64,000 nt of DNA from Alphaproteobacteria bacterium (GTDB taxonomy: Bacteria > Pseudomonadota > Alphaproteobacteria > UBA828), in contig CAXXMU010000002.1 in assembly GCA_963667785.2 (NCBI GenBank), positions 160,001 through 224,000 on the forward strand, read 5' to 3'. How positions within the stretch are numbered: position 1 is the first letter of the stretch; every line of letters starts with the position of its first letter. Under the pieces are notes generated by a model that saw only the letters and a program-made list of their open reading frames with translations, was not told where the DNA came from and did no database searches. This document shows positions 1,181 to 29,022 of this stretch, one piece after another. The translations under genes and the position numbers were made by a program.

Positions 1181-1244
1181 TTGACAGCCGGCGATGCACC
1201 GGCCACGTTTATCAACTAACAAAAAGAGATTGCGTAAATCGCAA
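1181..1244 (+). promoter_or_regulatory. Putative sigma70 promoter (TTGACA-N17-CACGTT) with a downstream palindrome TTGCG-N5-CGCAA, a candidate IclR-type operator
   Basis: TTGACA at 1181-1186, CACGTT at 1204-1209, inverted repeat at 1230-1244 in an AT-rich intergenic patch ahead of the 1331 operon. Confidence 0.5.
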
Positions 1245-1330
1245 GTTCGATGCCGCGTGCGGCACGCGAGGAGGATGGCTGCGAGGGCCGGCGGACGGCA
1301 GCCTGACTCCCGGCATCCGGAGGCAGCGTC

Positions 1331-3346
1331 ATGCCGAAGGGTTGGCAGGTCGGGATCGATGTCGGTGGCACGTTCACCGACGTGATCGCCGTGAGCCGGG
1401 CGCATGGCGAGGTCCGCGTTGCCAAGGTCCCCTCCCGCAGCGACGACCGCATCGCCGGTCTGATGGCGGCGCTCGCAGCCGTCGATCTCGACTGGTCGGC
1501 GGTGGACGATCTGATCCACGGCACGACCATCGTCACCAACGCCATCGTCCAGGGCCAGCACGCCAGGGTCGCGCTGATCGCCACCAAGGGGTTCTCGGAC
1601 ACGCTGGCGATCGGGCGCCAGAACCGGCGCCACCTCTACCGGCTCGACCTGCCGCCCAAGCTCCCGCCCCAGGTCCCCGCCGAGCGCCGCTTCGAGGTGA
1701 CCGAGCGGCTCGACCATGAGGGCCGGGTGCTGGTCGCGCTGAACCCGGACTCGGTAGACGACGCCGTCGATAGCATCGCGGCGTGCGGCGCCGAGGCCGT
1801 CGCCGTCTCGCTCCTCCATGCTTACGCGAACCCCGCGCACGAGGAGGCGCTGGGTGCGCGGCTGCGGGCGCGGGTTCCTTACGTGGCGCTCTCGCACCGG
1901 GTGAACCCCGAGGCGCGGGAGTACGAGCGCACGGCGACGACGGCGCTCAGCGCCGGCGTGATGCCGCTGGCCGCGTCCTATCTCGACGAGCTGGAGGAGG
2001 CGAAGCCGGCGGGCTCCGGCCTGCATCTCTTCCATTCCGCGGGCGGCATGGCATCGCCCGCGGCGCTCCGCGACTTGCCGCTCGGCCTCGCCGCCTCTGG
2101 CCCCGCCGCCGGTGTCGCTGCCGCAGGCCGCATGGCCCGCGCGCTCGGGCTGGAACGCGCCATCAGCTTCGACATGGGCGGAACCACTACCGACGTCTGC
2201 CTGATTCTCGACGGCGAGGCGCAGATTTCGAGCGACCGCTCCCTCGGCGGGCGGCCCCTGCGCCAGCCCATGGTGGCGGTGGAGTCCATCGGCGCGGGCG
2301 GCGGCTCCATCGCCCGGCTCGATCACGGCTCTCTCGCGGTCGGGCCGGAAAGCGCCGGCGCGGACCCGGGCCCGGCCTGCTACGCCAGGGGCGGCGACCG
2401 CCCCACGGTGACCGACGCCAATCTGGTGCTCGGCTATATGGACAAGGAGCGTGTTCTCGGCGGCGGCCTCAGCCTCGATGCCGCCGCCGCCCGCGACGCG
2501 CTGGCGCCGCTTGCCGCGGGCATGGAGATGGCCGTGGAGGGTGCCGCTCTGGGCGTCGTCAGGGTGGCCAACGCGGCCATGCTGCGCGCGCTGCGCCGGG
2601 TTACGGTGGAGCGCGGCGTGGATGGCCGCGGCTGCACGCTGCTCGCCTTCGGCGGCGCAGGCCCGATGCATGCGGTGGCGCTGGCGCGCGCCTTCTCCAT
2701 CGCCGACGTCGTGGTTCCCGCCCACTCCAGCATCTTCTCTGCGCTCGGCTGCGTCGGCGCGGAGATGAGCTACGCGCAGCAGCGCACGCTGCGCATGGCG
2801 TCGGACGCCTGGGACGGAACGCGCGTCGACCGGGTGCGGCGGGAGCTGCGCGCCGATCTCGCCGCGCCGCTCGCAGCCGCCGGCCATGACGAGGGCGAGC
2901 TTTCGGTGGAGGAGGTGGCATCGGTCCGCTACCGCAGCCAGAGCTACGCCATCGAGGTGGCGGATGCGTCGTTCGACGACCCGGCCCGCCTGGGCCGCGC
3001 CTTCAGGGAGCGGCATCGGGCGCTCTACGGCTTCGCGACCGAGGAGCCGTGGGAGCTGGAATCGATCCGCATGCGCCTCGCTGCGCCCCGCAACGGCCTC
3101 GCCCATCCGCCCGCCGCCGCGGCCAACGAGGCGCCCGAGCCGGTCGAGACGCTGCCGTGCACGTTCGGGCCCGGCGCGCCGCTGCTGACGCCCCGCTACG
3201 ACCGCGCCGGCCTCGGCCCCGACGTGCCGCTGGCGGGGCCCGTCATCGTCGACGACGCGTGGTCGACCGTCGTGGTGCCGCCCGGTGCGACGCTCACCGC
3301 CGATGCCGCCGGCCATCTCCACATCGCCACGGGGGCGGGCCGGTGA
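1331..3346 (+). CDS. Hydantoinase/oxoprolinase subunit A (HyuA/OplA-like, ATP-dependent)
   Basis: GIDVGGTFTD, HGTTIVTNA, SGPAAGV, FDMGGTTTD, IGAGGGSI, GPESAGADPGPACY, PTVTDAN, AFGGAGPMH motifs. Confidence 0.92.
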   Translation: MPKGWQVGIDVGGTFTDVIAVSRAHGEVRVAKVPSRSDDRIAGLMAALAAVDLDWSAVDDLIHGTTIVTNAIVQGQHARVALIATKGFSDTLAIGRQNRRHLYRLDLPPKLPPQVPAERRFEVTERLDHEGRVLVALNPDSVDDAVDSIAACGAEAVAVSLLHAYANPAHEEALGARLRARVPYVALSHRVNPEAREYERTATTALSAGVMPLAASYLDELEEAKPAGSGLHLFHSAGGMASPAALRDLPLGLAASGPAAGVAAAGRMARALGLERAISFDMGGTTTDVCLILDGEAQISSDRSLGGRPLRQPMVAVESIGAGGGSIARLDHGSLAVGPESAGADPGPACYARGGDRPTVTDANLVLGYMDKERVLGGGLSLDAAAARDALAPLAAGMEMAVEGAALGVVRVANAAMLRALRRVTVERGVDGRGCTLLAFGGAGPMHAVALARAFSIADVVVPAHSSIFSALGCVGAEMSYAQQRTLRMASDAWDGTRVDRVRRELRADLAAPLAAAGHDEGELSVEEVASVRYRSQSYAIEVADASFDDPARLGRAFRERHRALYGFATEEPWELESIRMRLAAPRNGLAHPPAAAANEAPEPVETLPCTFGPGAPLLTPRYDRAGLGPDVPLAGPVIVDDAWSTVVVPPGATLTADAAGHLHIATGAGR

Positions 3347-4938
3347 GCGGCGCCGTCGATCCCGTGACCCTCGAGGTGATCCGCCACGCGCTGACGGCGA
3401 CGGCGGAGGAGATGTCGCTCGTGGTCATGCGCTCGGCGCGCTCGCCGCTGCTGCGCGAGGCCGGCGACCTCTCGTCGGCGCTGACCGATGCCGACGGCCA
3501 CCTCATCGCCCAGGGCCGCGACATTCCCATGCACATGGGGGTGATGAGCTTCACCGTCCGCGAGTTCCTGAAGCGGGTGCCGCGCGAGCGGCTGGAGCCC
3601 GGCGACGTCTGGTTCCTCAACCTGCCGGAGGTCGGCGGCAACCACCTGCCGGACGTGAAGGCGATCCGGCCGATCTTCGTGGACGACGCGATCGTGGCCT
3701 TCGCGGCGAGCCTCGCCCACTGGGCGGATATCGGCGGCGCCGTGCCCGGCAGCTACGTCGCCGGCGCCACCGACGCCTGGCAGGAGGGCCTGCGCATCCC
3801 GCCCTTCCGTCTCTTCACCGCCGCCGGGCCCGACCGCGAGAAGCTCGACATGATCTGCGCCAACGTGCGCGGCGCGGACGAGCGCGAAGGCGACATCCTG
3901 GCCCAGGTCGCGGCCAGCCGGGCGGCCGAGGAGCGCGTGCACCAGATCTGCGCCGAGCACGGCACCGAGACGGTGACCGCCGCCATCGCCGCCATCCACG
4001 ACCGGGCCGAGGCGCAGATGCGCACAGCACTCGCGGCGATCCCCGACGGCGACTACGCGGGCGAGGACTGGCTCGACGACGATGCCGGCGGCGGCGGCCC
4101 CGTCGCCGTCCGCGTGCGCGCGACCATCGCGGGCGATCATGCGCGCTTCGACTTCTCGGAGACCGACGACGCGGCGCGGGGGCCGGTGAACACCACGCCC
4201 TTCATCGCCGCGGCCTCTGTCTTCTACGTGGTGAAGGCGCTGTTCGGTCCCGACATCCAGCCGAGCGGCGGCTGCTACCGGCCGCTGGAGATCGTGACCC
4301 GGCCCGGCTCGCTGCTCGATCCCGGCCCGGAAAGCCCCGTGGTGGGCGGCAATCACGAGACCTCGCAGCGGATCGCCGACGCCGTGTTCCGGGCGCTGGA
4401 GCCGACCGGGCCGGAGCGGCTCACGGCCGGCGGGCCGACCACGTCCGGCCTGGTGCTGTTCGGCGGCAGGCGGAGCGACGGTGCCTGGACCACGCTCTAC
4501 GAGGTCCACGGCGGCGGTGAGGGCGCGCGGCACGACCGCGACGGGGCGCCGGTGATCCGGGTCCACATGTCCAACGTGATGAACACGCCGGCCGAGGTGG
4601 TCGAGGCCGAGTATCCCATCCGCATCGAGTGCCAGCGCCTGCGCCGCGACTCCGGCGGTGCCGGCCGCCACCGCGGCGGCGAGGGGCTGCATCGCGAATA
4701 CAGGGTTCTGGGCGACGACATGTCGGTGACCTCGATGTTCGAGCGCCGCGTGGTGCCGCCCTACGGCCTGCAGGGCGGCGAGGAAGGCGCGCCCTTCCGC
4801 GTGACCGTCGTCCGTGCGGAAGGCCGCAGCTACGACATGCCGGGAAAGGCGAACCTCCGGCTCGGCGAGAACGACCTGGTCGTCGTCGAGAGCTGCGGCG
4901 GCGGCGGATACGGGCAGCCAGAAAGCGAAGGCCGATGA
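3343..4938 (+). CDS. Hydantoinase/oxoprolinase subunit B (HyuB/OplB-like)
   Basis: GTG start overlaps the upstream TGA; DPVTLEVI, RSARSPLLREAGDLS, GGNHLPD, AHWADIGG, QEGLRIPP, NTPAEVVE, GGGGYG. Confidence 0.92.
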   Translation: MSGAVDPVTLEVIRHALTATAEEMSLVVMRSARSPLLREAGDLSSALTDADGHLIAQGRDIPMHMGVMSFTVREFLKRVPRERLEPGDVWFLNLPEVGGNHLPDVKAIRPIFVDDAIVAFAASLAHWADIGGAVPGSYVAGATDAWQEGLRIPPFRLFTAAGPDREKLDMICANVRGADEREGDILAQVAASRAAEERVHQICAEHGTETVTAAIAAIHDRAEAQMRTALAAIPDGDYAGEDWLDDDAGGGGPVAVRVRATIAGDHARFDFSETDDAARGPVNTTPFIAAASVFYVVKALFGPDIQPSGGCYRPLEIVTRPGSLLDPGPESPVVGGNHETSQRIADAVFRALEPTGPERLTAGGPTTSGLVLFGGRRSDGAWTTLYEVHGGGEGARHDRDGAPVIRVHMSNVMNTPAEVVEAEYPIRIECQRLRRDSGGAGRHRGGEGLHREYRVLGDDMSVTSMFERRVVPPYGLQGGEEGAPFRVTVVRAEGRSYDMPGKANLRLGENDLVVVESCGGGGYGQPESEGR

Positions 4939-5750
4939 ACGCACGAACGAAGCAGGGGAACGGTGCAGTGAAGCTGGATGGCAGGAAGGCAATCGTCACG
5001 GGCGCGGCGAAGGGCATGGGCGCCGCCATCACGACGACGCTGGCGCGCGAGGGCGCCGACGTCGTGCTGACCGCCCGCGACACCGAGCCGCTCGAACGGG
5101 TGGCGGAGGATGTCCGGGCGCTGGGGCGCACGGCCCACGTGATCGGCTGCGACGTGACCGAGGATGCCGAGGTCAAGGCCATGGTCGATGCGGCGCTCGG
5201 CGCCTTCGACGGGCGCATCGACATCCTGGTCAACATCGCCGGCGTCACCGGGCCGATCGAGACGCCGGTGCAGGACATCGACGTGGCCGACTTCGACTAC
5301 GTCATCACCGCCAACGAGCGCGGCACCTTCCTGCCCATCAAGTATGTGGTGCCGACCATGATCGCCCAGCGAAGCGGCAAGATCGTCAATATCGGCGGCA
5401 CCTCGGGCCTGCGCGGCTACGCCATGCGGACCGCCTACAGCGCGTCCAAGTGGGCGGTGCGCGGGATCACGCGCACCGTCGCGCTCGAGGTCGGCAAGTA
5501 CAACGTCAACGTCAACGCCGTCTGCCCCGGCATCGTCGAGACGCCGCGCATGCAGAAGCTCTGCGAGGAGAAGGCCCGCGTGCGCGGCTGGACGGTGGAC
5601 GAGGTGTACGACGAGTACGTGCAGGAGATGTGCCTCAAGCGCGTCACCACCTGCCAGGACGTGGCCAACGCCGTGCTCTTCATGGCGAGCGAGGACAGCC
5701 GCCAGATCACCGGCCAGGCCATCACGGTCGACGGTGGCTGGGACGTGTGA
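4935..5750 (+). CDS. Short-chain dehydrogenase/reductase (classical SDR)
   Basis: TGAAKGMG Rossmann motif, NIAG, YSASK catalytic motif, VNAVCPG, ITGQAITVDGG; ATGA overlap (alternative GTG at 4968). Confidence 0.9.
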   Translation: MNARTKQGNGAVKLDGRKAIVTGAAKGMGAAITTTLAREGADVVLTARDTEPLERVAEDVRALGRTAHVIGCDVTEDAEVKAMVDAALGAFDGRIDILVNIAGVTGPIETPVQDIDVADFDYVITANERGTFLPIKYVVPTMIAQRSGKIVNIGGTSGLRGYAMRTAYSASKWAVRGITRTVALEVGKYNVNVNAVCPGIVETPRMQKLCEEKARVRGWTVDEVYDEYVQEMCLKRVTTCQDVANAVLFMASEDSRQITGQAITVDGGWDV

Positions 5751-5784
5751 GGCGGCAGCGCAGGCGATAGCGGGAGGCGTCACG

Positions 5785-6651
5785 ATGTACGCGCCGTTCG
5801 AACTGGACATTCCGAACGATCTGGCGGGCGCCTTGGCGGCGCTCGCGAACGGGGCCGGCGAGGCGGTTCTCCCCCTCGCCGGCGGCACCAACCTCATCGT
5901 CGACATCCGCGCCGGGCGCGAGCGGCCCGACCGGATGGTGGGCCTCGACGGGGTCGACGAGCTCAAGGGCATGGAGTTCGGGCCGGAGCGCGTCACCATC
6001 GGCGGCCGCACCACGGTGAGTGACCTGCTGCGCTCGCCCGAGATCGCCCGGGAGGCGCCCTCGCTGGTCGAAGCCGCGCGCCTCTTCGGCGGCCTGATGG
6101 TGCGCAACACAGGCACCGTCGCCGGCAACATCGCCAGCGGCTCGCCGGCGGCCGACCTGGTGCCGCCGCTGCTCACGCTCGACGCCGAGTTGGTGCTTCA
6201 GAGCGCCGCGTCCACGCGCACGCTGGCGCTGGACGACTACTACCTCGGCTACAAGCAGGACGCGCGGCGGCCGGACGAGCTGATCACCCGGATCTCGTGG
6301 CCGCGCCTGCCGGAGAACGCCGTCAACACCTTCTACAAGCTCGCCCGGCGCAAGGGCGACGCGATCACGGTGACCGGCGTGGCGGTGACGCTGGCGGCGG
6401 CGGGCGGCACCTGCACCAGGGCGCGGATCGCCCTCGCCTCCGTCGCGCCGGTGGTGCGCCGCGTCAAGGAGGCCGAGGCGCTGCTGGAGGGCCGGGCGCT
6501 GACGCCGTCGCTGATCGACGAGGCGGCGGAGGCGGCGGCGGAGGCGTGCACGCCCATCGACGATATCCGGGCCTCCGCCGATTACCGCCGACACACAGTC
6601 CGGGCGCTGACCCGCCGCCTCGTTGCCGGGGCGTGGGACCGGCTGGCCTAG
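5785..6651 (+). CDS. Molybdenum hydroxylase FAD-binding (medium, CoxM/XdhB-like) subunit
   Basis: LAGGTNL, VRNTGTVAGNI, SPAADL, PIDDIRASADYR; GGGAGG RBS before ATG 5785. Confidence 0.9.
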   Translation: MYAPFELDIPNDLAGALAALANGAGEAVLPLAGGTNLIVDIRAGRERPDRMVGLDGVDELKGMEFGPERVTIGGRTTVSDLLRSPEIAREAPSLVEAARLFGGLMVRNTGTVAGNIASGSPAADLVPPLLTLDAELVLQSAASTRTLALDDYYLGYKQDARRPDELITRISWPRLPENAVNTFYKLARRKGDAITVTGVAVTLAAAGGTCTRARIALASVAPVVRRVKEAEALLEGRALTPSLIDEAAEAAAEACTPIDDIRASADYRRHTVRALTRRLVAGAWDRLA

Positions 6652-6664
6652 GGGAGTGACGCGC

Positions 6665-7153
6665 ATGTCCGAGACAAGAAACATCACGCTCCGCATCAAC
6701 GGCCGCGAGGAGGAGGGGCGCTTCCCCGCCCATCGCACCCTGCTGGAGGCGCTGCGCCAGCTCGGCCACATGGAGGTGAAGTGCGGCTGCGAGAAGGGCG
6801 ACTGCGGCGCCTGCGCCGTGCTGCTGGACGGCATGGCCGTGGACAGTTGCCTGACGCTGGCCTGGATGGCGGCCGGCAAGGAGGTCACCACCGTCTCCGG
6901 CCTCGGCGATCTCGATGCGCCCCATCCCTTGCAGGAGGCGTTCGCCGACAGCGGCGCCGCGCAGTGCGGCTACTGCATTCCGGGGATCATCATCGCGGCC
7001 CAGGCGATTATCGGCGAGAACCCGGAGCCGACGGAGGACGACATCCGCCTCGGCCTCAGCGGCAATCTCTGCCGCTGCACCGGCTACACCAAGATCTTCG
7101 AGGCCATCGCCGACGCGGCCAGAGAGATGCGCGCCGAGGGAGGTGAGCAATGA
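6665..7153 (+). CDS. Molybdenum hydroxylase 2Fe-2S (small, CoxS-like) subunit
   Basis: GCEKGDCGACAV...C and QCGYC...GNLCRCTGY cluster ligands. Confidence 0.93.
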   Translation: MSETRNITLRINGREEEGRFPAHRTLLEALRQLGHMEVKCGCEKGDCGACAVLLDGMAVDSCLTLAWMAAGKEVTTVSGLGDLDAPHPLQEAFADSGAAQCGYCIPGIIIAAQAIIGENPEPTEDDIRLGLSGNLCRCTGYTKIFEAIADAAREMRAEGGEQ

Positions 7154-9492
7154 CCTACACCGACATCGATCCGGGGGCGCTGGCCAACGTCCAGTTCCGG
7201 CAGGTCGGCAAGCCGCTGACCCGCACCGACGCGCCGGGCAAGGTCACCGGGCGGACGCCCTACGCCGGCGACTACGTGATGCCGGGCATGCTGCACATGC
7301 GGGTGGTGCGCGCCGACATCGCGAGCGCCCGCCTCGTCCAGCTCGATGTCTCCCGCGCCAGGGCGCTCAAGGGTGTCGCCTGCGTGCTGACCGCCGCCGA
7401 CATGCCCGACCGCACGTCGGCCACCGACATCCCCGGCCAGACCGGCCAGAAGAGGCTGGATACCGACCAGCCGGTTCTGGTGAAGGATCGGGTCCGCTAC
7501 TTCGGCGAACCGCTCGCCCTGATCGCGGCGGAGACCCGTGACATCGCCGACCACGCGGCGGCGCTCGTCGAGTTCGAGCTTGAGCCGATCCCCGGCGTCT
7601 ACGATCCGCTGGAGGCGCTGAAGCCCGGCGCGCCGCAGGTCTATGGCGCCGACAACATCGTCGCCACGCGCAGGATCAGGAAGGGCGATGTCGAGGCGGG
7701 ATTCGCCCGGGCCGATCTCATCGTCGAGAACACCTACAAGACGCCGTTTCAGGAGCACGCCTTCCTGGAGCCCGAGGTGGGCCTCGCCTGGGTGGACGAG
7801 AACGACGTGGTCAACATCCGCGTCTCGACCCAGGTGATCGAGCACTTCCGGCCCATCGCCGACGCCATCGGCGTGCCGCACAACAAGGTCCGCGTGCGGG
7901 GCGCGCTGGTGGGCGGTGGCTTCGGCGGCAAGGAGGACATGACCGTCGAGGTCTATCTCGCGCTGCTCGCGAAGCACACGGGTAGGCCGGTGCGGCTCGA
8001 ATACTCGCGCGAGGATTCCTTCGTCGGCCACGGCAAGCGCCACCCCTTCATCCTCACCTACCGCACCGGGGTGACGAAGGAGGGCAAGATCACCGCCCTC
8101 GAGGTGACGATGATCGCGGACGCCGGCGCCTACGTCTTCCTCAGCCCCTACGTCATCCTCTACGCGCTGGTCGCAGCCCCCGGCCCCTACCGGGTCGACA
8201 ATCTCAACGTCTTCGCGCAGGCGGTCGCCACCAACAACATGTACACGAGCGCCTTCCGCGGCTTCGGCGCGCTGCAGGCCTGCGCGGCCTACGAGCAGCA
8301 GATGGACGAGATCGCGGACGCGCTCGGCATCGACCGCCTGGAGCTCCGCCGGCGCAACTTCCTGAAGACCGGCGAGCCCATGTCCACCGGCTTCGTCCCG
8401 CCGAGCGCCATCTGGACCGAGCAGTGCGCGGAGAAGGCCTGGGCCGGGCTGGGCGAGCCCACGCCGGCGCAAGGCCCGATACGGACCGGGCGCGGCCTCG
8501 CCTGCTACCAGCAGAGCTACGGCCGCCTCACCTTCCTGCACGACACCTCGGAAGCGTGGGTCGGCGTCGAGATGGACGGCACCGTCGTGGTGCGCTCCGG
8601 CGTCACCGACATCGGTGCCGGCCAGATTTCGGCGCTCGGCCAGATCGCGGTGGAGGTGCTGGGCGTCACGCTGGACAACGTCGTCATCTACAACAGCGAT
8701 TCCGCCGTGACCCCGCTCGCCGGCACCACGACCGCGACGCGCGCGCTCTACATGACCGGCAACGCCGCCAAGCAGGCGGCCGAAGGGCTTCGCGCCCGGC
8801 TGGTCGAACGCGCGGCGCAGGAATTCGGCGTGGCGCCCGACGAGATCGACTTGGGCTTCAACGAGGTCTTCGTCATCGACAGGCCGGAGAAGACCATGCC
8901 GCTGGTCGAGCTGGTGCGGATCTGCGCGGCTGAAGGCATCCACCGCTCGGAACTGGCCATCTTCCGTGCCCCGTTCGGCGATTTCCTCGATCCCGAGACC
9001 GGCCAGGGGCAGGCCCATCCCGACTATGCCTACGGCGCCCACGCGGTGGAGGTTTCCGTCGACGTGGAGACCGGCGAGGTCGAGGTGCTGAAGAGCGTGG
9101 CCGCGCACGATGTCGGCCAGTGCATCAACCCGGCGGCCGTTGAGGGCCAGATTCAGGGAGGCGCGCAGAACGGGCAGGGCTACGCGCTCAGCGAGGAGAT
9201 GCTCTACGAGGAGGGCCGCCTGGTCACGCCGTCGTTCAGCGAGTACCTGATGCCGACGGCCATGGACATGCCGAAGGTCGAGTGCATCATCCTCGAATCC
9301 CGCAGCGGCGTCGGGCCCTTTGGCGCCAAGGGCATCGGCGAGCCGGCCATGACTGCCGTGGCGCCCGCCATCGCCAACGCCGTCGCCGACGCCATCGGCG
9401 TGCGCGTCTTCGAGATGCCGATCACGCCGGAGCGCGTGGTCCGGGCGTTGCACGGGAAGAGCGCTGCGGAACAGGGCCGGGATCCGGCGTGA
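7150..9492 (+). CDS. Xanthine dehydrogenase-family molybdopterin-binding large subunit
   Basis: QEHAFLEPE, GGGFGGKE, SAFRGFG, GQIQGG, GAKGIGEP motifs; ATGA overlap with the small subunit. Confidence 0.92.
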   Translation: MTYTDIDPGALANVQFRQVGKPLTRTDAPGKVTGRTPYAGDYVMPGMLHMRVVRADIASARLVQLDVSRARALKGVACVLTAADMPDRTSATDIPGQTGQKRLDTDQPVLVKDRVRYFGEPLALIAAETRDIADHAAALVEFELEPIPGVYDPLEALKPGAPQVYGADNIVATRRIRKGDVEAGFARADLIVENTYKTPFQEHAFLEPEVGLAWVDENDVVNIRVSTQVIEHFRPIADAIGVPHNKVRVRGALVGGGFGGKEDMTVEVYLALLAKHTGRPVRLEYSREDSFVGHGKRHPFILTYRTGVTKEGKITALEVTMIADAGAYVFLSPYVILYALVAAPGPYRVDNLNVFAQAVATNNMYTSAFRGFGALQACAAYEQQMDEIADALGIDRLELRRRNFLKTGEPMSTGFVPPSAIWTEQCAEKAWAGLGEPTPAQGPIRTGRGLACYQQSYGRLTFLHDTSEAWVGVEMDGTVVVRSGVTDIGAGQISALGQIAVEVLGVTLDNVVIYNSDSAVTPLAGTTTATRALYMTGNAAKQAAEGLRARLVERAAQEFGVAPDEIDLGFNEVFVIDRPEKTMPLVELVRICAAEGIHRSELAIFRAPFGDFLDPETGQGQAHPDYAYGAHAVEVSVDVETGEVEVLKSVAAHDVGQCINPAAVEGQIQGGAQNGQGYALSEEMLYEEGRLVTPSFSEYLMPTAMDMPKVECIILESRSGVGPFGAKGIGEPAMTAVAPAIANAVADAIGVRVFEMPITPERVVRALHGKSAAEQGRDPA

Positions 9493-9517
9493 GCGCCGGC
9501 CTGCGGCGAGCCGAGGC

Positions 9518-10279
9518 ATGTCCGAGACCAACGACAAGCCGCTGAGCCGGTACATCCGGGTGCTGGAGACGGTCGCCCACGCCAGGACGGGCGTGACGCT
9601 CACGGACATCGCCAGGGAGCTGGAGCTGCATCCGGGGACGGCGCATCGCCTGATCCGCGGTCTCGTCGCTCTCGACCTGCTGCACAGTCCGGCCGGAACC
9701 AAGAGCTACGTGGCCGGTGCCAGGCTTCAGTCTCTCCTCCACGCGACCATGGACCGCGCGGGCTATGCGGCGTTCGCGAAGTCCGTCCTCGACGGGCTCG
9801 TGGCGGAGTTCGGCGAGACCGCCCATCTGGCGCGGCTGAGCGGCGACTTCGCCGAGTCCGTGCTGATGGAGCAGCCGTCGGGCTCCGACCGCGCCTTCGT
9901 GCAGCCGGGGCGCCAGCTTCCGTTGCACGCGGCGGCGTCGGGCAAGGCGATCCTCGCCTTTCAGGACGAGGACTTCGTGGCGCGCTATCTCACGCGGCCG
10001 CGCGAGCAGTTCACGGAAAGGACCAAGGTCGGCGAGACCGCCATCCGCAACGAGATCGACCGCATTCGCGCCGACGGGATGGCGGTCTGCGACAACGAGC
10101 TCGACAGCGGCGTGCTCAGCTACGGGCACCCGGTGCGGATCGGCGGCGGTCAGGTCCTCTATTCGGTCGGCATCACCGGGCTCGCCGACCGCTTCCGCCC
10201 CATCGATCGCTCCAGGATCAAGCTGAGGCTCTCGGAGGCGGCGGCCGATCTCGGCAGGAGGCTCGGGTTCACAGGCTAA
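9518..10279 (+). CDS. IclR family transcriptional regulator
   Basis: N-terminal HTH (TLTDIARELELHPGTAHRL), GETAHL, PGRQLPLHAAASGKAILA. Confidence 0.9.
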   Translation: MSETNDKPLSRYIRVLETVAHARTGVTLTDIARELELHPGTAHRLIRGLVALDLLHSPAGTKSYVAGARLQSLLHATMDRAGYAAFAKSVLDGLVAEFGETAHLARLSGDFAESVLMEQPSGSDRAFVQPGRQLPLHAAASGKAILAFQDEDFVARYLTRPREQFTERTKVGETAIRNEIDRIRADGMAVCDNELDSGVLSYGHPVRIGGGQVLYSVGITGLADRFRPIDRSRIKLRLSEAAADLGRRLGFTG

Positions 10280-10285
10280 GGGAAT

Positions 10286-11233
10286 GTGTCGATGGTCGAC
10301 TCACGCTTGGCGGACATCGTTCGAAACTGCCGGAACACGACGGCCAGCAGCTGCGGCGGCTATCTGGAGCCGACGGCCACGGGTCAGCCGGGAGCCTACG
10401 TCTCGACGATTCTGCTTTCGACCGGCAGCGTCAATCTCGAGCAGTTTCCGGGCTACCCGTTCGAGGAGGATCTGGACCAGGGCATGGCCGAGATCGTGTC
10501 CTACGACCGCGCCGAGTGTAACGATTCCTATATCGGCCAGGTCAACATGCTGCAGGCGTCGTCGTTCAGCGGCGTCAACGGCGCCATCTGGGGCTACGAC
10601 CTGGCGATCGAACCCCGCATCGGCAAGACCTATCCCGTCGGCCGCATCGAGAACATTCCCATCTACTCGCTCATTCCCCTGCGCGACGCCACCCGGCAGC
10701 TCTTCGGCGTCGCCGAGAGCCGGCACTTTCCGCCGCAGGAAGGGGCGATGGTCGTCTGTGCCGAGAAGTACCGGACGAGCACGGTCTCCGACGGCAATCT
10801 CTGGATCTGGTGCGCGCTCGGCTTCGCGATTGCGGAGGATCGCGAGAACCATGCCTGCCTGTTCATGGAAGATACGGGCTCGCTGGCGCTGGGGCCGGAC
10901 GGGGGACAGGCGGTGCGGGAGAGGCTCGACGACAGGCTCAACAGGATCGCCTACGCGGCGTACCTCTGCGGCGTGAACCAAGGCGCGACCTACGAGAAGA
11001 TCTATATCGGCTGGAAGGCGTCCCACATTCCCGAGAACCATGTGGGCTGCGCGCTCGCCTGCGCGCCGTACGTGACGCTGCCGACGGGCGCGTTCAGGAA
11101 CATCACGCCGGAGACGGGCATCCTGGAGCTTTCGACGGACGAGTGGCTGTCCCGGGTCGGCCACTCCAGGGTGGACGAGCCCGACTACGAGCTCGAGACC
11201 CTGACCGGGCCGAACATCCCGGCCGTGCAGTAG
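10286..11233 (+). CDS. hdcA: Pyruvoyl-dependent histidine decarboxylase proenzyme (HdcA-like)
   Basis: IVSYDRAE, YIGQVNMLQAS/SFSG self-cleavage site (Ser-Ser codons 10559-10564), IWGYDL, VVCAEK, LFMED and ACAPY match the recalled Lactobacillus-type HdcA pattern; start may be ATG 10292. Confidence 0.85.
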   Translation: MSMVDSRLADIVRNCRNTTASSCGGYLEPTATGQPGAYVSTILLSTGSVNLEQFPGYPFEEDLDQGMAEIVSYDRAECNDSYIGQVNMLQASSFSGVNGAIWGYDLAIEPRIGKTYPVGRIENIPIYSLIPLRDATRQLFGVAESRHFPPQEGAMVVCAEKYRTSTVSDGNLWIWCALGFAIAEDRENHACLFMEDTGSLALGPDGGQAVRERLDDRLNRIAYAAYLCGVNQGATYEKIYIGWKASHIPENHVGCALACAPYVTLPTGAFRNITPETGILELSTDEWLSRVGHSRVDEPDYELETLTGPNIPAVQ

Positions 11234-11279
11234 GCAACGGCTGCCACTCCCGATGGGCCGCTGACCGGAGAGTCGTGCG

Positions 11280-12365
11280 TTGACCGAGACGAGCATAGCG
11301 ATCGACGTGCGTAACGCGGTGAAGCGCTTCGGCGCGGTCACGGCGCTCGCCGGCGCGTCGCTGACGATCCGGGACAACGAGTTTTTCACGCTGCTCGGCC
11401 CTTCGGGCTGCGGCAAGACCACCCTGCTCCGCCTCATCGCCGGCTTCGAGGAGATCACCGAGGGCGAGATCCTCCTCTACGGCGAGGACCTCGGGGCGCT
11501 GCCGCCCAACCGGCGCCCGATCAACACCGTCTTCCAGCACTACGCGCTCTTCCCGCACATGACGGTGGCGGAGAACGTGGCCTTCGGCATGCGGAGGCTC
11601 GGCTGGAGCAAGGCCGACATCGAGGACCGGACGCTGCGCATCCTCGATCTGGTGAAGCTCGGCGACCTCGCGGCGCGGAGGCCCGCCCAGCTTTCGGGCG
11701 GGCAGCAGCAGCGGGTGGCACTCGCCCGCGCCATGGCGCCCCGGCCGAAGGTGCTCCTGCTCGACGAGCCGCTGTCCGCGCTCGACCTCAAGCTGCGTCA
11801 GGCCATGCGGATCGAGCTGAAGCAGATCCAGAAGGATACCGGCATCACCTTCGTCTTCGTCACCCACGACCAGGAAGAGGCGCTGACCATGTCAGACCGC
11901 ATCGCCGTGATGTCGGCGGGCGAGATCCGGCAGGTGGGCACGCCACGCGAGATCTACGAGGCGCCCCTCGACCGCTTCGTGGCCGACTTCATCGGCGAGA
12001 CCAACGTGCTGGACGCGACCGTGCGGCGGGGGCCGGACGATGCACTGACCTGCCACCTTGCCAACGGGGCCGCGTTCCCGTGCCACGCGAGCGTGCCGCC
12101 AGGAGACGGGGCCTTCGCACACGTGCTGATTCGGCCGGAGCGCCTCTCCCTCGTGCCCGAGGCGGTGTGCGACACCGGCCTCACGGGCGTGGTCGACCAG
12201 GCCGTCTACCTCGGCACCGACATCCAGTACGGCGTGCGGCTGGATGGGGGGCCGGACGTCCTGGTCCGCGCGCAGAATGTCGGCGCCGACGCGGTGACCT
12301 ATCGCACCGGTGATCGCGTCGGGCTCGCCATCGCCCCCGGCGCTGCGCGACTGCTGGTGGACTGA
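11280..12365 (+). CDS. Polyamine-type ABC transporter ATP-binding protein (PotA-like)
   Basis: GPSGCGKT, LSGGQQQRVALARA, LLLDEPLSALD, VTHDQEEA, C-terminal TOBE-like region. Confidence 0.93.
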   Translation: MTETSIAIDVRNAVKRFGAVTALAGASLTIRDNEFFTLLGPSGCGKTTLLRLIAGFEEITEGEILLYGEDLGALPPNRRPINTVFQHYALFPHMTVAENVAFGMRRLGWSKADIEDRTLRILDLVKLGDLAARRPAQLSGGQQQRVALARAMAPRPKVLLLDEPLSALDLKLRQAMRIELKQIQKDTGITFVFVTHDQEEALTMSDRIAVMSAGEIRQVGTPREIYEAPLDRFVADFIGETNVLDATVRRGPDDALTCHLANGAAFPCHASVPPGDGAFAHVLIRPERLSLVPEAVCDTGLTGVVDQAVYLGTDIQYGVRLDGGPDVLVRAQNVGADAVTYRTGDRVGLAIAPGAARLLVD

Positions 12366-13291
12366 TGGCCGGCGAGCTCGCCAGCACGCGCGCGGTCTCC
12401 CGCACCTTCGCGCCGGTGCGCACCCACTTGCTGATCCCGACCTGGGTGATCATCGGCTTCTTCCTCGTGGCGCCGGTGCTGATGATGCTCGTCTACTCCT
12501 TCCTGACGAAGGAGTTTCGGGGCGGCGTGATCTGGGACTTCTCGCTCGCGGCCTACGACCAGTTCATCTTCGACCGCGGCCTCTTCGGCGACGATCCGCC
12601 GCAGATCGAGTGGACCTACATCGTCATCTTCGCGCGCTCGATCGTGCAGGCCGCCGTCGCCACCGTGCTCTGCCTCATCATCGGCTTCCCGACCGCCTAC
12701 TTCATCGCGACCCGCTCGCCCGCGACGCGCTCGATGTGGCTCTTCCTGGTGACGGTTCCCTACTGGGTGAACCTGCTCATCCGCACGGTCTCGATGAAGT
12801 TCCTCATCCGCGACAACGGGCCGCTCAACGAGGCGCTGCTCGGTCTCGGGGTCATCAGCGAGCCGATCGCGCTCATCAACACCGATTTCGCCGTGCAGCT
12901 CGGCCTCTTCTACTCGTATCTGCCCTTCATGGTGCTGCCGATCTACGCCTCGGTGGAGCGCTACGACTTCGCCCTTTCGGAGGCGGCGGCCGACCTCTAC
13001 GCCAACCGCTGGACGATCCTGCGCAGGGTGATCCTGCCGATCGTGCGGCCAGGCATCGTGGCGGGCTGCATCCTGGTCTTCGTGCCAAGCCTCGGCGCCT
13101 TCCTCGCGCCCGACCTTCTCGGCGGCGCGAAGAACTTCCTGATCGGCTCGCTGATCGAGGAGCAGTTCAAGGGCAACGCCGGCAACTGGCCCTTCGGCGC
13201 TGCCGCCTCGATGATCCTGCTCTCCCTCGTGCTGATCGCGCTCTTCATCTACGCGCGCCGGCAGGCGCTGCGCAGCGCGAAGGCCGCCTGA
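12365..13291 (+). CDS. Polyamine-type ABC transporter permease (PotB-like)
   Basis: Hydrophobic helices, [18 protein letters not shown] (EAA loop), NWPFGAA. Confidence 0.9.
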
Positions 13292-13292
13292 G

Positions 13293-14114
13293 ATGCGGCG
13301 CAGGCTCGACATCCGCCGCTATCCCGGCTTCCTGCCGGTGACGATCCTCTGCCTCGTGGTGCTCTACGCGCCGCTGCTGGTGGTGATGGTCTACAGCTTC
13401 AACGACTCGCTCTCGATCACCCGCTGGGGCGGGTTCAGCTTCCGCTGGTACATGGACATCTTCACCGGGCCGGAATCGGCCAAGTTCAAGGATGCGGCGT
13501 GGAACTCGCTCACCATCGCGCTCTGCGCGGCGACGGCCAGTACGACCATCGCCACCGCCGCGGCGGTCGCGATGGTGCGGGGCGGCGCCTTCCGCGGCAA
13601 GGCGCTCAACCTCGCGCTCATCAGCATGCCGATCATGGTGCCGGAGATCGTCACCGCGGTGGCGACGCTGGTCTTCTTCAGCGCCATCGGTTTCACGCTC
13701 GGCTATCTCTCCATTCTCGTCGCCCACATCGTCTTCTGCATTCCGTTCGCGTACCTGCCGATCGCGGCACGCCTGCAGGGGATCGACGGCAGCTACGAGG
13801 AGGCCGCGCAGGATCTTTACGCGAGCCGCTTCCAGGCGTTCCTGCGCGTTCTCATGCCGTTGATGGCGCCCGGCATTCTCGCGGGCTTTCTGCTGGCATT
13901 CATCATCTCGCTGGACGATTTCATCATCACCAACTTCATCAAGGGCGCCGGTATCGAGACCCTGCCCACGGCGATATTCGGGGCCGTGAAGCAGGGCATC
14001 AAACCCAACATCATGGCGCTCAGCACCATCATGCTCTCCGTCTCGATCCTGATCGTCACGCTCTCCTATTTCATCAGCCGGTACGGTCGTCAGGGAACGA
14101 AGGCGGAGGCGTGA
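13293..14114 (+). CDS. Polyamine-type ABC transporter permease (PotC-like)
   Basis: YSFN...W.GFS.RWY, PEIV, EEAAQDL, SLDDF, ETLP motifs. Confidence 0.9.
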
Positions 14115-14152
14115 GTTTTTTGCGGCAATCAAACTCAACCAAGGAGGCCACA

Positions 14153-15190
14153 ATGCGCTACTTGCTCAAAGCCGGAATGGCGGCGTTGGCCCTGACCCTT
14201 GTCGCAGGCGCGGCACAGGCGCAGGAGAAGCTCTCGATCTACCACTGGTTCGAGTACATCCCGCAGGAGCTGCTGGACAAGTTCTCCGCGGAAACGGGAA
14301 TCGAGGTGACCATGGACACCTTCGATTCCAACGAGGCCATGCTGGCATCGCTCAAGGCCGGCAAGCTCGGCTCCTACGACGTGGCGGTGCCGGGCGATTA
14401 CATGGTCGAGATCATGATCGGCGAAGGCATGCTCGACACCGTCGCGGACGGCGAGCTCGCCAACTTCGCGAACATCGAGCAGCAGTGGCTGGACGTGCCC
14501 TTCGACATGGGCCGCAAGCACTCGATCCCCTACCAGTGGGGCTCGACCAGCTTTTCGGTCAACCGGGACGTCTATCAGGGCGACATCAACGACACCGCCA
14601 TCGTCTACGACCCGCCGGACGAGCTTAAGGGCAGGATCAACGTGCTCGACTCCCAGGGCGAGGTCATGCTGCTGGCTGCCCTCCACCTCGGCATTCCGCA
14701 GTGCTCGACCGACCGCGAGCAGCTCAAGCAGCTCGACGCGCTGCTGCAGGCGGCGAAGCCGCACTGGGCCTCGTTCAACTCCGACGGCGCCAAGGACGTG
14801 CTGGTCTCCGGCGACGCCGCGGTGGGGATGATCTGGAACGGCTTCGGCGCCAAGGCACGCGCCGAGGGCGCCAACATCGAGTACGCCTACCCGCGCCAGG
14901 GTTATGTCGTCTGGATGGACAATGTCGTGCTGCTGAAGGACGCCCCCAACCGGGCCAGCGCGATCAAGTTCATGGACTTCCTGCTGGAGCCGGAGAACAT
15001 CGCCGCGGTCACCAACTACGCGCGCTATGCCGCCGGCGTGACGGGCGTGACTCCGCATCTCGATCCGGAGCTCGCCAGCCAGCCCGAATCGGTGCCGCCG
15101 GCCGACGCGCCTGCCGGCACCTTCGTCGCCGTGTGCGATCAGGCGACGCAGGAGGTCTACGACACCATGTGGACCCGCCTGAAGAAGTAG
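14153..15190 (+). CDS. Polyamine-type ABC transporter periplasmic binding protein (PotD/PotF-like)
   Basis: AAGGAGG RBS, signal peptide ending AQA, W.EYI, FDSNEAM, PYQWG, WNG, WMDN. Confidence 0.9.
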   Translation: MRYLLKAGMAALALTLVAGAAQAQEKLSIYHWFEYIPQELLDKFSAETGIEVTMDTFDSNEAMLASLKAGKLGSYDVAVPGDYMVEIMIGEGMLDTVADGELANFANIEQQWLDVPFDMGRKHSIPYQWGSTSFSVNRDVYQGDINDTAIVYDPPDELKGRINVLDSQGEVMLLAALHLGIPQCSTDREQLKQLDALLQAAKPHWASFNSDGAKDVLVSGDAAVGMIWNGFGAKARAEGANIEYAYPRQGYVVWMDNVVLLKDAPNRASAIKFMDFLLEPENIAAVTNYARYAAGVTGVTPHLDPELASQPESVPPADAPAGTFVAVCDQATQEVYDTMWTRLKK

Positions 15191-15274
15191 ACGTCCGTTA
15201 CCCGTTGCCGGGCGGCGCGCTCCAGCGGGGCGCGTCGCGCCGGCCACCCCTGTCTCGGCCGATCGGGTGATCCC

Positions 15275-17347
15275 ATGAGCGTTGATTCGCGTTTCGACAT
15301 TCTGCTTCAGCCCATCGAGATCGGGCCCGTCACCGCCCGCAACCGCTTCTACCAGGTGCCGCATTGCACCGGCATGGGCTACCGCGACCCGACGGCGCTC
15401 GCCCACATGCGCGGCGTCAAGGCCGAAGGGGGCTGGGCCGTGGTCTGCACCGAGCAGGTCGAGTTCCACTGGACCTCGGAGATCACGCCCTTCATCGAGC
15501 TCCGGCTCTGGGACGACCGCGACATTCCGATGCTCGCCAGGATGGCGGAGCACGTCCACGCGCACGGCGCGCTCGCCGGGCTGGAGCTTTGCTACAACGG
15601 CGCGCACGCGCCCAACTTCTATTCGCGCGAAGTGCCGCTGGCGCCGACGGGCCTGCCGGTCGCGAGCTTCAGTTACGAGCCCGTCCAGGCGCGCAGCATG
15701 GACAAGCAGGACATCCGCAACGTCCGCCGCTGGCACAGGGCGGCGGCGCTTCGCGCCCGGCAGGCGGGCTACGACCTGATCTACGTGTACGCCGGCCACG
15801 GGCTGAGCTTCCTCCATCACTTCCTCTCCAGGGAGTTCAATCACCGCACGGACGAATACGGCGGCTCGCTGGAGAACCGCGTCCGGCTCCTCAAGGAGCT
15901 CCTGACCGACACCAGGGAGGCGGTGGGCGACACCTGCGCCGTTCCCTGTCGCCTCTCGATGGACGAGCTGCGCGGGGGCGTCGGGCTGGAGAAGGCCGAG
16001 ACCGAGGACATGATCGGACTCGTGGCCGAGATTCCGGACCTCTGGGACGTCTGCCTCGCCTCCTGGGAGAACGACAGCATGCCGTCCCGCTTCGGCGAGG
16101 AGGGCGGGCAGGAGCCCTACATCGACGGCGTGAAGAAGCTCACCACCAAGCCCGTGGTGGGCGTCGGCCGCTACACCTCGCCCGACCGCATGGCGTCCAT
16201 CATCCGCAAGGGCATCGTCGACCTGATCGGCTGCGCGCGGCCCTCCATCGCCGATCCCTTCCTGCCGCGAAAGGTGGAGGAGGGGCGCATCGAGGACATC
16301 CGCGAGTGCATCGGCTGCAACATCTGCGTCTCCGGCGACTTCACCATGTCGCCCATCCGCTGCACCCAGAACCCGACCATGGGGGAGGAGTGGCGCCGGG
16401 GCTGGCATCCGGAGCGCATCCGGCCGAAGGAGAGCGACAAGCCCGTCCTCGTCGTCGGCGCCGGCCCCGCCGGACTGGAGGCGGCACAGGCGCTCGGCAA
16501 GCGGGGCTACGAGGTGACCCTGGCGGAGCAGGCCACGGAGCTCGGCGGCCGCGTGGCAAAGGAGTGCCGCCTGCCGGGGCTCGCCGCCTGGGGCCGGGTT
16601 CGCGACTGGCGCGTCGAGCAGCTTCACAAGCTGCCGAACGTGAGCGTCTACCTGGATTCACGCCTCGATGCGGAGGCCGTCCTTGAGTTCGGCTGCCCCC
16701 GCGTCGTCATCGCCACCGGGTCGCGCTGGCGCGGCGACGGGGTGGGCCGCCACTGGACGACGCCGGTGCCGACCGGGGACGGCGCGCAGGTGCTGACGCC
16801 CGACGACATCATGGAGGATCGTCTGCCGCAGGGCCGGCGCGTCCTCGTCTGGGACGACGATCACTACTACATGGCCAGCGTGATGGCCGAGCTCCTGGCG
16901 GAGAAGGGCTTCGACACCACCTACGTTACGCCCGCGTCGGAGGCCTCGACCTGGTCGCGCAACACCATGGAGCAGCACTTCGCGCAGGCGCGCATGCTGG
17001 AGAAGGGAATTCGCATCCAGCCGTTCCGGACGCTAAACCGCATCGCGCCGGGCGCGGTCGCGCTCTCGTGCGTTCACACGGGCCGGGAGGAGGAGCTGGA
17101 GGCCGATGCCGTGCTCCTCGTCACCTCCCGCACGCCGTCGGACGAGCTCGCGACCGCGCTCGCGCGCCTGCACGAGAGGTGGTCGGACGCCGGTCTCGAA
17201 GCCGTCGACGCCATCGGCGACGCGCTCGCGCCGGCGACCATCGCGCATGCCGTCTACGCCGGCCGGCGCTACGCGGAGGAGCTCGACGGCCCGGGGGTCA
17301 CGGGCGATGCGGTGCCCTTCAAGCGCGAGCTTGCCGAATTGATCTAG
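15275..17347 (+). CDS. Histamine dehydrogenase-like (TMADH/HADH family; 6-S-cysteinyl-FMN, 4Fe-4S)
   Basis: NRFYQVPHCTGMGYRDP (covalent FMN Cys), KAEGGWAVVCTEQVE, PFIELRLWD, CIGCNICVSGD...C cluster motif, GAGPAG; the GYRDP/PFIELR/SGDxTMSPIRC segments resemble recalled Nocardioides HADH more than TMADH. Confidence 0.8.
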   Translation: MSVDSRFDILLQPIEIGPVTARNRFYQVPHCTGMGYRDPTALAHMRGVKAEGGWAVVCTEQVEFHWTSEITPFIELRLWDDRDIPMLARMAEHVHAHGALAGLELCYNGAHAPNFYSREVPLAPTGLPVASFSYEPVQARSMDKQDIRNVRRWHRAAALRARQAGYDLIYVYAGHGLSFLHHFLSREFNHRTDEYGGSLENRVRLLKELLTDTREAVGDTCAVPCRLSMDELRGGVGLEKAETEDMIGLVAEIPDLWDVCLASWENDSMPSRFGEEGGQEPYIDGVKKLTTKPVVGVGRYTSPDRMASIIRKGIVDLIGCARPSIADPFLPRKVEEGRIEDIRECIGCNICVSGDFTMSPIRCTQNPTMGEEWRRGWHPERIRPKESDKPVLVVGAGPAGLEAAQALGKRGYEVTLAEQATELGGRVAKECRLPGLAAWGRVRDWRVEQLHKLPNVSVYLDSRLDAEAVLEFGCPRVVIATGSRWRGDGVGRHWTTPVPTGDGAQVLTPDDIMEDRLPQGRRVLVWDDDHYYMASVMAELLAEKGFDTTYVTPASEASTWSRNTMEQHFAQARMLEKGIRIQPFRTLNRIAPGAVALSCVHTGREEELEADAVLLVTSRTPSDELATALARLHERWSDAGLEAVDAIGDALAPATIAHAVYAGRRYAEELDGPGVTGDAVPFKRELAELI

Positions 17348-20570: not shown

Positions 20571-21434
20571 ATGAAACCGCCACCGTTCGACTATCACTGT
20601 CCGGAGACGCTGGACGAGGCGCTCGCGCTGCTCGCGGAGCACGGCGAGGCGGCCAAGGTGCTCGCCGGCGGCCAGAGCCTGGTGCCGATGCTCAACCTGC
20701 GGGCGGTGCACCCGGAAGTGCTGATCGACATCAACCGCCTGCCGGGCCTCGACCATGTGCGGATCGAGGACGGCGAGCTCAGGATCGGCGCGCTGGCGCG
20801 GCACCGGGCGGTGCTGGAGTCGCCTGCGGTGCGCGAGGCATCGCCCCTGATGGCCGCCGCCTATCCCTACGTCTCCCACGGGCCGATCCGCAATCGCGGC
20901 ACGCTGTGCGGCAATCTCTGTCACAACGACCCGGCCTCGGAGATGCCGGCGGTGGCGCTGGCGAGTGACGCGGAGATGATGCTGCAGAGCGCGTCGGGCG
21001 CGCGCACCGTCGGCGCGGAAGAATTCTTCACCGGCACGCTTTCCACCGCCGCCAGGGCGGACGAGCTCCTGGTCGAGGTCCGCGTGCCGCAGGCGCCGGC
21101 GGGGCAGGGCGCGGCCTTTCACGAGGTGAGCCCGCGCAAGGGCGACTTCGCCTACGTGGCGGTGGGCGCCGTAGTCTCGCTCTCGGGCGGCGCCTGCAGC
21201 GGCGCGCGGATCGTCTGCGCCGGCGTGGGCGACGGGCCGCACCGGGCGCGCGCAGCCGAGGACGCACTCGAGGGCGCGGCGCCGGGCGAAGACGCCTTCC
21301 GGCAGGCGGCAGCGGCTGCGGCCGACAGCATCGACCCCGGCGAGGACTTTCACGCGGACGCGGACTATCGGCGCGATCTGGTGCGCAGCCTGACCCGGCG
21401 CGCGCTCGCCGATGCCGCCTCCCGCTGTCACTGA
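20571..21434 (+). CDS. Mo-hydroxylase FAD subunit (CoxM-like), set 1
   Basis: MKPPPFDYH, LAGGQSLVPMLNLR, IRNRGTLCGN, DPASEMP. Confidence 0.92.
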   Translation: MKPPPFDYHCPETLDEALALLAEHGEAAKVLAGGQSLVPMLNLRAVHPEVLIDINRLPGLDHVRIEDGELRIGALARHRAVLESPAVREASPLMAAAYPYVSHGPIRNRGTLCGNLCHNDPASEMPAVALASDAEMMLQSASGARTVGAEEFFTGTLSTAARADELLVEVRVPQAPAGQGAAFHEVSPRKGDFAYVAVGAVVSLSGGACSGARIVCAGVGDGPHRARAAEDALEGAAPGEDAFRQAAAAAADSIDPGEDFHADADYRRDLVRSLTRRALADAASRCH

Positions 21435-21446
21435 AGGGAGGTGGAG

Positions 21447-24403: not shown

Positions 24404-24462
24404 AAGACGCCCAGCCGCCGGGAGGGGCGGCGCGCACGCGGGCAGAGCAGGGAGGGGGTCCC

Positions 24463-26832: not shown

Positions 26833-26869
26833 CGCCCGCGGCAACCGGAACGATCGCGGGAGAAAGGCG

Positions 26870-27343
<474 letters not shown>

Positions 27344-27356
27344 GGGGGAGGGGCCG

Positions 27357-29011: not shown

Positions 29012-29022
29012 GGGAGGGGGCG

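Follow-up and report, generated by a model that had tools for sequence, protein, structure and literature searches.

Pyruvoyl-dependent histidine decarboxylases (HDCs) are described in the accessible text of PMC8465708 as acid-resistance or histamine-secreting enzymes. The gene occurs in hdcP-hdcA-hdcB-hisS clusters such as that of L. reuteri pLRI01, and HdcB is termed essential in S. thermophilus in the accessible part of PMC4410942. The survey in PMC8465708 counted antiporter-linked genes only; what is accessible of it places pyruvoyl HdcA in six phyla, including the Proteobacteria, with hdcB nearby only 'occasionally', and Alphaproteobacteria are absent from those of its supplements that can be searched. 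No hdcB lies beside the S. capitis hdcA gene, and source records name pyruvoyl HDCs in Roseibium, Yoonia, Palleronia, Theionarchaea and Methanosarcina. An earlier note on the present DNA, drawn from the sequence alone, called these enzymes classically Firmicute; their occurrence in other phyla, like that of loci free of hdcB, is already known.

Histamine breakdown is represented by the Hin genes of P. putida U and P. aeruginosa (hinABCD, hinFLHG), the functions of which, and the hinFLHG order, are set out in the accessible parts of PMC8231116 and PMC6467879. The Hut route (HutH, HutU, HutI, HutF/G) uses histidine as a carbon and nitrogen source and starts by deamination. Histamine dehydrogenases of Rhizobium sp. 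4-9 (PDB code 6DE6) and Nocardioides simplex (3K30) have been solved.

The locus considered here lies in a stretch of 64,000 nucleotides (the window) from an alphaproteobacterial genome that is 98% complete. A gene for a pyruvoyl HDC proenzyme (10286..11233, + strand) is the eighth of 13 co-oriented, tightly spaced genes (1331-17347) in the order hyuA, hyuB, SDR (short-chain dehydrogenase/reductase), three Mo-hydroxylase subunits, IclR, hdc, potA-D and histamine dehydrogenase (HADH). The operon points to an undescribed route of histidine breakdown rather than to acid defence. We read the HDC as a genuine member of a known enzyme family, placed in a conserved arrangement that is new and appears catabolic. 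As the first catabolic step it would reverse the usual role of such enzymes, and carriers of hdcA would not all be histamine producers. Among the matches listed in open-access full text, neither an HDC-HADH operon nor imidazole degradation by a Mo-enzyme and hydantoinase was found.

The histidine decarboxylase

The open reading frame 10286-11233(+) is uninterrupted and encodes 315 amino acids. The earlier note had proposed a family profile search, and PF02329 matches with 147.7 bits (cut-off 25) over positions 18-290 of 294. The score with TIGR00541, the HdcA equivalog, is 149.1 bits, under its cut-off of 346.65. The sole matches in a sequence search of the PDB are the alpha (E 7.8e-22) and beta (E 1.5e-4) chains of the Lactobacillus 30a enzyme. 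An AlphaFold model (pLDDT 79.6), compared to structures by Foldseek, has 1pya_B as the top match (E 9e-14, TM-target 0.77) and pyruvoyl arginine decarboxylase trails at 7e-6. Profile and fold rule out identity with the latter, and a closer structural resemblance to some other pyruvoyl enzyme, which the earlier note had named as fatal to its reading, is not what is found. The value of dN/dS is 0.116 over 16 orthologue pairs, similar to that of neighbouring genes, and together with the profile match it rules out a pseudogene or chance frame. At the level of sequence, a real and intact member of the pyruvoyl HDC family under purifying selection is confirmed.

Translation probably starts at the ATG at 10292, which all 14 relatives examined share together with the purine-rich stretch before it; the GTG at 10286 lacks such conservation. 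The intact NMLQAS/SFSG site described in the earlier note is present in the open frame. Its assignment to Ser92-Ser93 is right when counted from 10286, but since the conserved start is ATG 10292 the native cleavage pair is probably Ser90/Ser91, with predicted chains of about 9.7 and 24.5 kDa. In the alignment this pair corresponds to Ser81-Ser82 and falls where the beta chain of 1hq6 ends and its alpha chain starts. The SYDRAE, CAEK and FMED motifs listed in the earlier note are also there (as IVSYDRAE, CAEK and FMED).

The HDC resembles HdcA of Lactobacillus 30a (1PYA) in fold, Ser-Ser cleavage site and substrate-binding residues. The alignment comprises 121 sequences, 22 of the window's clade and 99 others. 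Asp53, Ile59, Tyr62, Asp63, Ser81 and Ser82 are kept in 22/22 clade members, as are Glu66, Phe83, Lys155, Phe195, Glu197 and Tyr262, which we take to have active-site roles. Asp198 is present in the window's enzyme, and roles for Asp53/Asp198, Ile59, Tyr62, Asp63 and Ser81/82 are given in the accessible text of PMC8465708. None of the 22 clade sequences has Gly at position 58, where Glu, Gln or Asp is found instead; 85 of the 99 others do have Gly there. The clade also reads CAEK where others have CANK. A G58D mutant HDC reportedly matures slowly. Compared with S. capitis HdcA, the window's HDC is 28% identical, falls in a separate clade and has Gly58 replaced.

L-histidine is the likely substrate. 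The clade-specific changes by the pocket (G58 to E/Q/D, CAEK for CANK) might instead suit a modified histidine or histamine, N-methylated for example, handled by the same architecture. The named imidazole-binding residues of the HDC are nevertheless all unchanged, and we regard a modified substrate as unlikely; further evidence on it comes from the dehydrogenase and from the module's neighbours, below.

Relatives and distribution of the decarboxylase

In a quick tree of 24 rows the HDC groups with that of another alphaproteobacterium (G379) and with Theionarchaea-like sequences (SH-aLRT 97). The same quick tree rejects a grouping of the HDC with HdcA of L. reuteri and S. capitis (AU p 0.0097), and with it transfer from Firmicutes. 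The phylogeny proposed in the earlier note does not bear out Firmicute kinship, and the label 'Gram-positive-type' is not supported. Recent acquisition is unlikely, because GC3 of the gene (0.895) is near that of its neighbours (0.91-0.95) and the HDC tree broadly follows that of the cluster.

The HDC is found in 15/20 genomes of the genus, in 0/28 other genomes of the order and in 1/400 sampled from the class (G379). A profile search gives 418 HDC clusters at 50% identity. At the best 80 of 219 confirmed metagenomic HDC loci, an HdcP-like neighbour occurs at 10 and an HdcB match at none, many of the loci being short. HADH, HyuA/B and the Mo subunit are likewise absent from these best 80 of 219, which are many of them short and belong to other clades. 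Pairing of HDC with HADH as a general feature of the family was considered and rejected, being unseen at these best 80 of 219 loci and in the annotated flanks of HDC loci from Salipiger, Methylocystis and a Rhizobium plasmid. Loci of the Roseobacter group (L043:10689-11972; L048, L049) show a different hdc partner: ahead of the HDC they encode a conserved protein of 427 aa, weakly matched by transglutaminase (TGL) and 46% identical from locus to locus.

Operon organization

All genes of the operon are on the + strand. HyuA (1331..3346; PF01968, PF05378) and HyuB (3343..4938; PF02538, 597.9 bits; nearest structures 6yra and 7hk5) are the A and B subunits of an ATP-dependent hydantoinase/oxoprolinase. 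They are followed by the SDR (4935..5750; PF13561), for which the structure search found no close characterised structure, and by the FAD (5785..6651; PF00941, PF03450), 2Fe-2S (6665..7153; PF01799, PF00111) and molybdopterin (7150..9492; PF02738, PF20256, PF01315) subunits of a Mo-hydroxylase. The last contains GGGFGGK, AFRGFG and KGIGEP, to which we presume the roles of xanthine-oxidase-family motifs, and scores under every NCBIfam equivalog cut-off; no close characterised relative was found for it or for HyuB. An IclR-family regulator (9518..10279; PF09339, PF01614) precedes hdc. Downstream are a PotA-like ABC ATPase (11280..12365; TIGR01187 over cut-off), PotB-like (12365..13291; PF00528) and PotC-like (13293..14114; PF00528) permeases, and a PotD-like amine-binding protein (14153..15190) with spermidine/putrescine-binding proteins as its best PDB matches (E 3e-58). 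The histamine dehydrogenase-like flavoprotein (15275..17347) completes the series. The earlier note named an importer and a dehydrogenase as the neighbours of hdc: potA is indeed directly downstream, but the gene directly upstream encodes IclR and the dehydrogenase lies further out. As it also noted, hisS is missing, here from all 13 cluster genes scanned. The PotD-like protein is of the amine type, and therefore the operon does not account for the source of histidine.

A probable promoter with an AT-rich operator region and inverted repeats is located at 1181..1251(+), with TTGACA at 1181-1186. In a 16-sequence alignment TTGAC, read as a -35 box, and a palindrome, TATCGAA..TTCGATA, are conserved upstream of hyuA, and we consider the palindrome a putative IclR operator. 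The pattern is unique to this site in three genomes (G010, G017, G018); G003 has one extra site at two mismatches and G015, which lacks the cluster, has no match. The window's own operator (1181-1251) fails to match the genus pattern even at two mismatches. The palindrome is near-invariant in other members of the genus, and the window's IclR is 80-83% identical to theirs. A promoter/terminator scan gave a chance-level result.

The HDC gene sits inside the cluster in 15/15 HDC-bearing genomes of the genus (G001 and G006 have clusters cut by contig ends), with 78-97% identity per gene, and the genes flanking the cluster differ between genomes. In G018 hdc is relocated behind the dehydrogenase, still within the operon; G002 keeps the cluster and lacks the HDC. 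Neither HDC nor a hyuB orthologue is present in the near-complete genomes G012, G015 and G016, and G009, in which HDC was not found, is 62% complete. The dehydrogenase is part of the cluster in 7/15 HDC-bearing genomes and absent in 7/15, the cluster of G001 being cut short by the contig. The seven clusters without it form one clade and therefore reflect one loss event; these genomes carry a sister dehydrogenase elsewhere (73-75% identity) with an altered pocket (E60/V69), and the operator motif was not found at this gene in G010 and G017. The window's genome has a second copy of the cluster on a whole 15 kb contig (G000:C7, L011), at 82-97% protein identity and with a frameshifted dehydrogenase, which is probably from a contaminating relative because trees group it with G019/G020 (genome contamination 6.6%).

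The histamine dehydrogenase and Hin-type genes

The HADH matches 6DE6 and 3K30 over the full length (893.8 and 889.6 bits), against 729 for 6L6J and 538 for TMADH. These two solved histamine dehydrogenases are its nearest characterised relatives (the HADH tree is a quick tree); the window's enzyme differs from them in being co-encoded with an HDC. Of the 18 pocket residues that the accessible part of PMC10180351 lists in the Rhizobium enzyme, 12 are identical in the window's enzyme; the differences are N110H, A173G, F176L, T262S, D265N and M355F. That text calls F176 and D265 sensitive to substitution. The residue after D265N aligns with the Asp of the Nocardioides enzyme.

N110H and F176L, like E60/V69 in the relocated sister enzyme, could indicate a substrate other than plain histamine. 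Set against this, Leu176 and Asn-Asp at 265-266 are common to the window's enzyme and those of an Ideonella plasmid and of G122, a genome of another family, both linked to Hin-type genes. The Ideonella protein is the closest plasmid HADH (64.5%); itself uncharacterised, it agrees with the window's enzyme at 16/19 pocket positions. Its neighbours encode an aldehyde dehydrogenase, a LysR regulator and an FMO-RidA-DUF1028-ArgE run, which has the order and families of hinFLHG and is therefore read as Hin-like, DUF1028 presumably being HinH from its place in the order. In G122, RidA, DUF1028 and aldehyde dehydrogenase come before potA-B-C-D-HADH, which stand in the window's order (54-62% identity). 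The G379 HDC, of the window's own subgroup, adjoins aminotransferase-ALDH-M20-RidA-DUF1028 on the opposite strand, a complete Hin-like set that also comes with PotABCD, LysR and FMO; this link, and that of G345 described below, is each from a single genome. These neighbourhoods, with the histamine dehydrogenase and importer co-encoded in a conserved cluster, support the catabolic role that the earlier note gave to the HDC, and catabolic coupling of the decarboxylase is likely.

Three tandem DUF1028 genes occur in four genomes of the genus, at G004:C4:740574-742656, G008:C7:630161-632243, G012:C19:67578-69661 and G020:C5:352925-355008. Aspartate is the Hin end product; on the Ideonella plasmid a canonical panD (L160:6388-6792, over the TIGR00223 cut-off) ends an ABC-GMC operon by the Hin-like genes.

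Antiporter, Hut and Hin genes in the genome

The absence of an adjacent antiporter or hdcB, remarked on in the earlier note, extends to the whole genome. Two HdcP queries gave no tblastn match, L. reuteri HdcB gave none at E 0.01 (a single short query, with which distant forms could be missed), and APC permeases (PF13520) gave none. Set beside the hdcP-hdcA-hdcB-hisS clusters, the window places its HDC without antiporter or HdcB in a catabolic operon. Maturation may be self-sufficient, as the earlier note proposed, or may depend on a non-homologous activator. Classical acid resistance, with proton-motive force from decarboxylation and antiport, draws on the same enzyme family and on the retained Asp53-Asp198 pH pair. 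It is extremely improbable, since neither HdcP nor an APC antiporter was found in the 98%-complete genome, and the cycle would be undone by an importer that spends ATP on the product and a dehydrogenase that oxidises it.

The same searches bear on the suggestion, made in the earlier note, that the HDC modulates a host signal. Histamine would be made and released for host or community, with importer and dehydrogenase tuning the pool. Related sequence across all 30 bins is present in one RNA run labelled 'sponge metagenome' (word share 0.10, contigs only); because only contigs are available, this shows presence and not transcription. The accessible text of PMC10570526 puts forward amines made by symbionts, through PLP enzymes, as signals in sponges, and one subclade keeps the HDC having lost the adjacent dehydrogenase. 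That subclade still has the sister dehydrogenase, no exporter lies in the cluster and no APC antiporter was found in the genome, and hdc is on the same strand as degradative genes, behind a common upstream operator. With an importer and a histamine oxidiser encoded instead, the signalling role finds no direct support and is improbable.

Hut genes were not found: urocanase (PF01175) has no match in the genome, nor do HutU, HutH, HutI and HutC by tblastn at 1e-10. One PF00221 protein is present, far under the hutH cut-off. This aromatic amino-acid lyase family protein (L041:1378-2829, G000:C1) apparently lacks the Ala-Ser-Gly cofactor motif. Urocanase occurs in 3/20 genomes of the genus, two of them HDC-positive, was not found in G379, and is missing from the cluster-less genomes too; with only 3/20 carriers, an anti-correlation of Hut with HDC is uninformative and was set aside. 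As for Hin, the operon contains none of hinC, hinD and hinFLHG. With G379 proteins as family-level stand-in queries, the best genome-wide matches are 35% for FMO, 33% for M20 and 32% for ALDH; an aminotransferase matches at 58% from another locus, and DUF1028 is represented only by a divergent 110-bit copy. The genome also has four matches to PLP-dependent group II decarboxylases, among them a strong one at G000:C2:942255-943406 (PF00282, 397 bits).

Proposed pathway

We favour, with moderate confidence, a route from histidine through histamine to imidazole-acetate, followed by Mo-dependent hydroxylation and ATP-dependent opening of the ring. The pathway would begin with formation of histamine from cytoplasmic L-histidine by the HDC, which is predicted to cleave itself, and PotABCD would import external histamine or a similar amine. 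Oxidation of the amine by HADH would give imidazole-4-acetaldehyde, which the Mo-enzyme, together with the SDR, would oxidise to imidazole-4-acetate and then hydroxylate on the ring with water, giving an imidazolone or hydantoin-5-acetate. HyuAB would open the ring with ATP, probably to N-carbamoyl-aspartate, from which a carbamoylase encoded elsewhere would release aspartate and ammonia. IclR would control this imidazole-catabolic operon. Hydroxylation of N-heterocycles and aldehydes with water is a known reaction of the xanthine-oxidase family, and hydantoins are opened by enzymes of the HyuAB type. Carbamoylase homologues are present elsewhere in the genome (best 47.5%). Because the genome also has histidinol dehydrogenase homologues, a futile cycle would have to be prevented by regulation. 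The tentative part of the scheme, somewhat less likely than not, is the ring chemistry assigned to the Mo-enzyme and HyuAB.

In common with Hin, the route would import histamine and oxidise it via imidazole-acetaldehyde in the direction of imidazole-acetate, and the Pot-HADH block joins Hin-type genes in G122. It differs in having a flavin dehydrogenase in place of the HinC aminotransferase, ABC in place of APC uptake, and a decarboxylase that supplies histamine from histidine. The cluster lacks HinD, HinF, HinL, HinH and HinG and has the Mo-enzyme, SDR and HyuAB instead; the Mo-enzyme and HyuAB would replace HinD and HinFLHG, and the whole would stand in for Hut and for the Hin monooxygenase route. 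Hut would be matched in its end, histidine as carbon and nitrogen source, with no enzyme shared: the window's route starts by decarboxylation, Hut by deamination. That this is a third bacterial route for histidine or histamine, neither Hut nor Hin, is possible, though we would not yet lean towards it.

If the scheme is correct, hydroxylation of the imidazole ring by the Mo enzyme uses water in place of O2, and ring opening falls to an ATP-dependent hydantoinase. A substrate could then be assigned to the orphan hyuAB-SDR-Mo module found across Alphaproteobacteria, and this host-associated genus would act as a histamine sink. The operon provides a testable set of enzymes for oxygen-independent degradation of the imidazole ring and a candidate substrate for the uncharacterised Mo-hydroxylase/hydantoinase module. 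It adds to the known histamine dehydrogenases, and supplies an HDC without HdcB on which maturation can be studied.

The hyuAB-SDR-Mo module in other genomes

The upstream module predates the operon, orthologues of hyuB (66-80%) being present in 13/400 genomes of the class. Neighbourhoods were examined for 11 of the 13. The hyuA-hyuB-SDR-Mo order is complete in 6/11, the contig of a seventh stops after the SDR, and two others are on contigs shorter than 3 kb. These seven have neither hdc nor HADH nearby, and in the six with the full order HDC, HADH and Pot genes are all absent within 10 kb of the module.

The module standing alone in six other genomes could mean that the operon is a mosaic, in which HDC, Pot and HADH stop at the aldehyde or acid, for nitrogen scavenging, and the module degrades an unrelated heterocycle. 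More distant hyuAB relatives adjoin aminotransferases, not imidazole genes. The HADH family is matched in 6/7 module genomes against 39/400 overall (Fisher p 4e-6), but five of the six enzymes have clearly different pockets; as the genomes are kin and not independent, and genome size confounds the comparison, we set this co-occurrence aside. Several points oppose a mosaic. Wherever the contig is long enough, genus copies keep module, IclR and Pot genes together; close Hin ring-cleavage genes that could process the product further were not found in the genome; and in G345 the hyuA and hyuB orthologues (58% and 68%) are encoded directly after hutC, opposite hutI-hutH-hutU and with a carbamoylase nearby. 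A mosaic is improbable.

In G117 and G174 the hyuAB-SDR(-Mo) module (L156:14869-17054 and 2821-5271; L154:3825-5996 and 10705-13149) has as neighbours an MttB-family methyltransferase, a corrinoid protein and a GcvT-type oxidase, a hint that an N-methylated imidazole or betaine is broken down. Such neighbours suggest N-demethylation and would fit a modified substrate; the window's cluster, however, has no demethylase gene.

The G345 locus also encodes an 808-aa protein (L153:3142-5565) whose C-terminal half is HutI, probably fused to a second amidohydrolase; its gene sits in the hut operon ahead of hyuAB. The window's genome contains 33-37 HyuA/HyuB-like matches and several HADH/TMADH paralogues, and within the window itself 20571-31961 is a dense array of xanthine-oxidase-family subunit sets with three large subunits.
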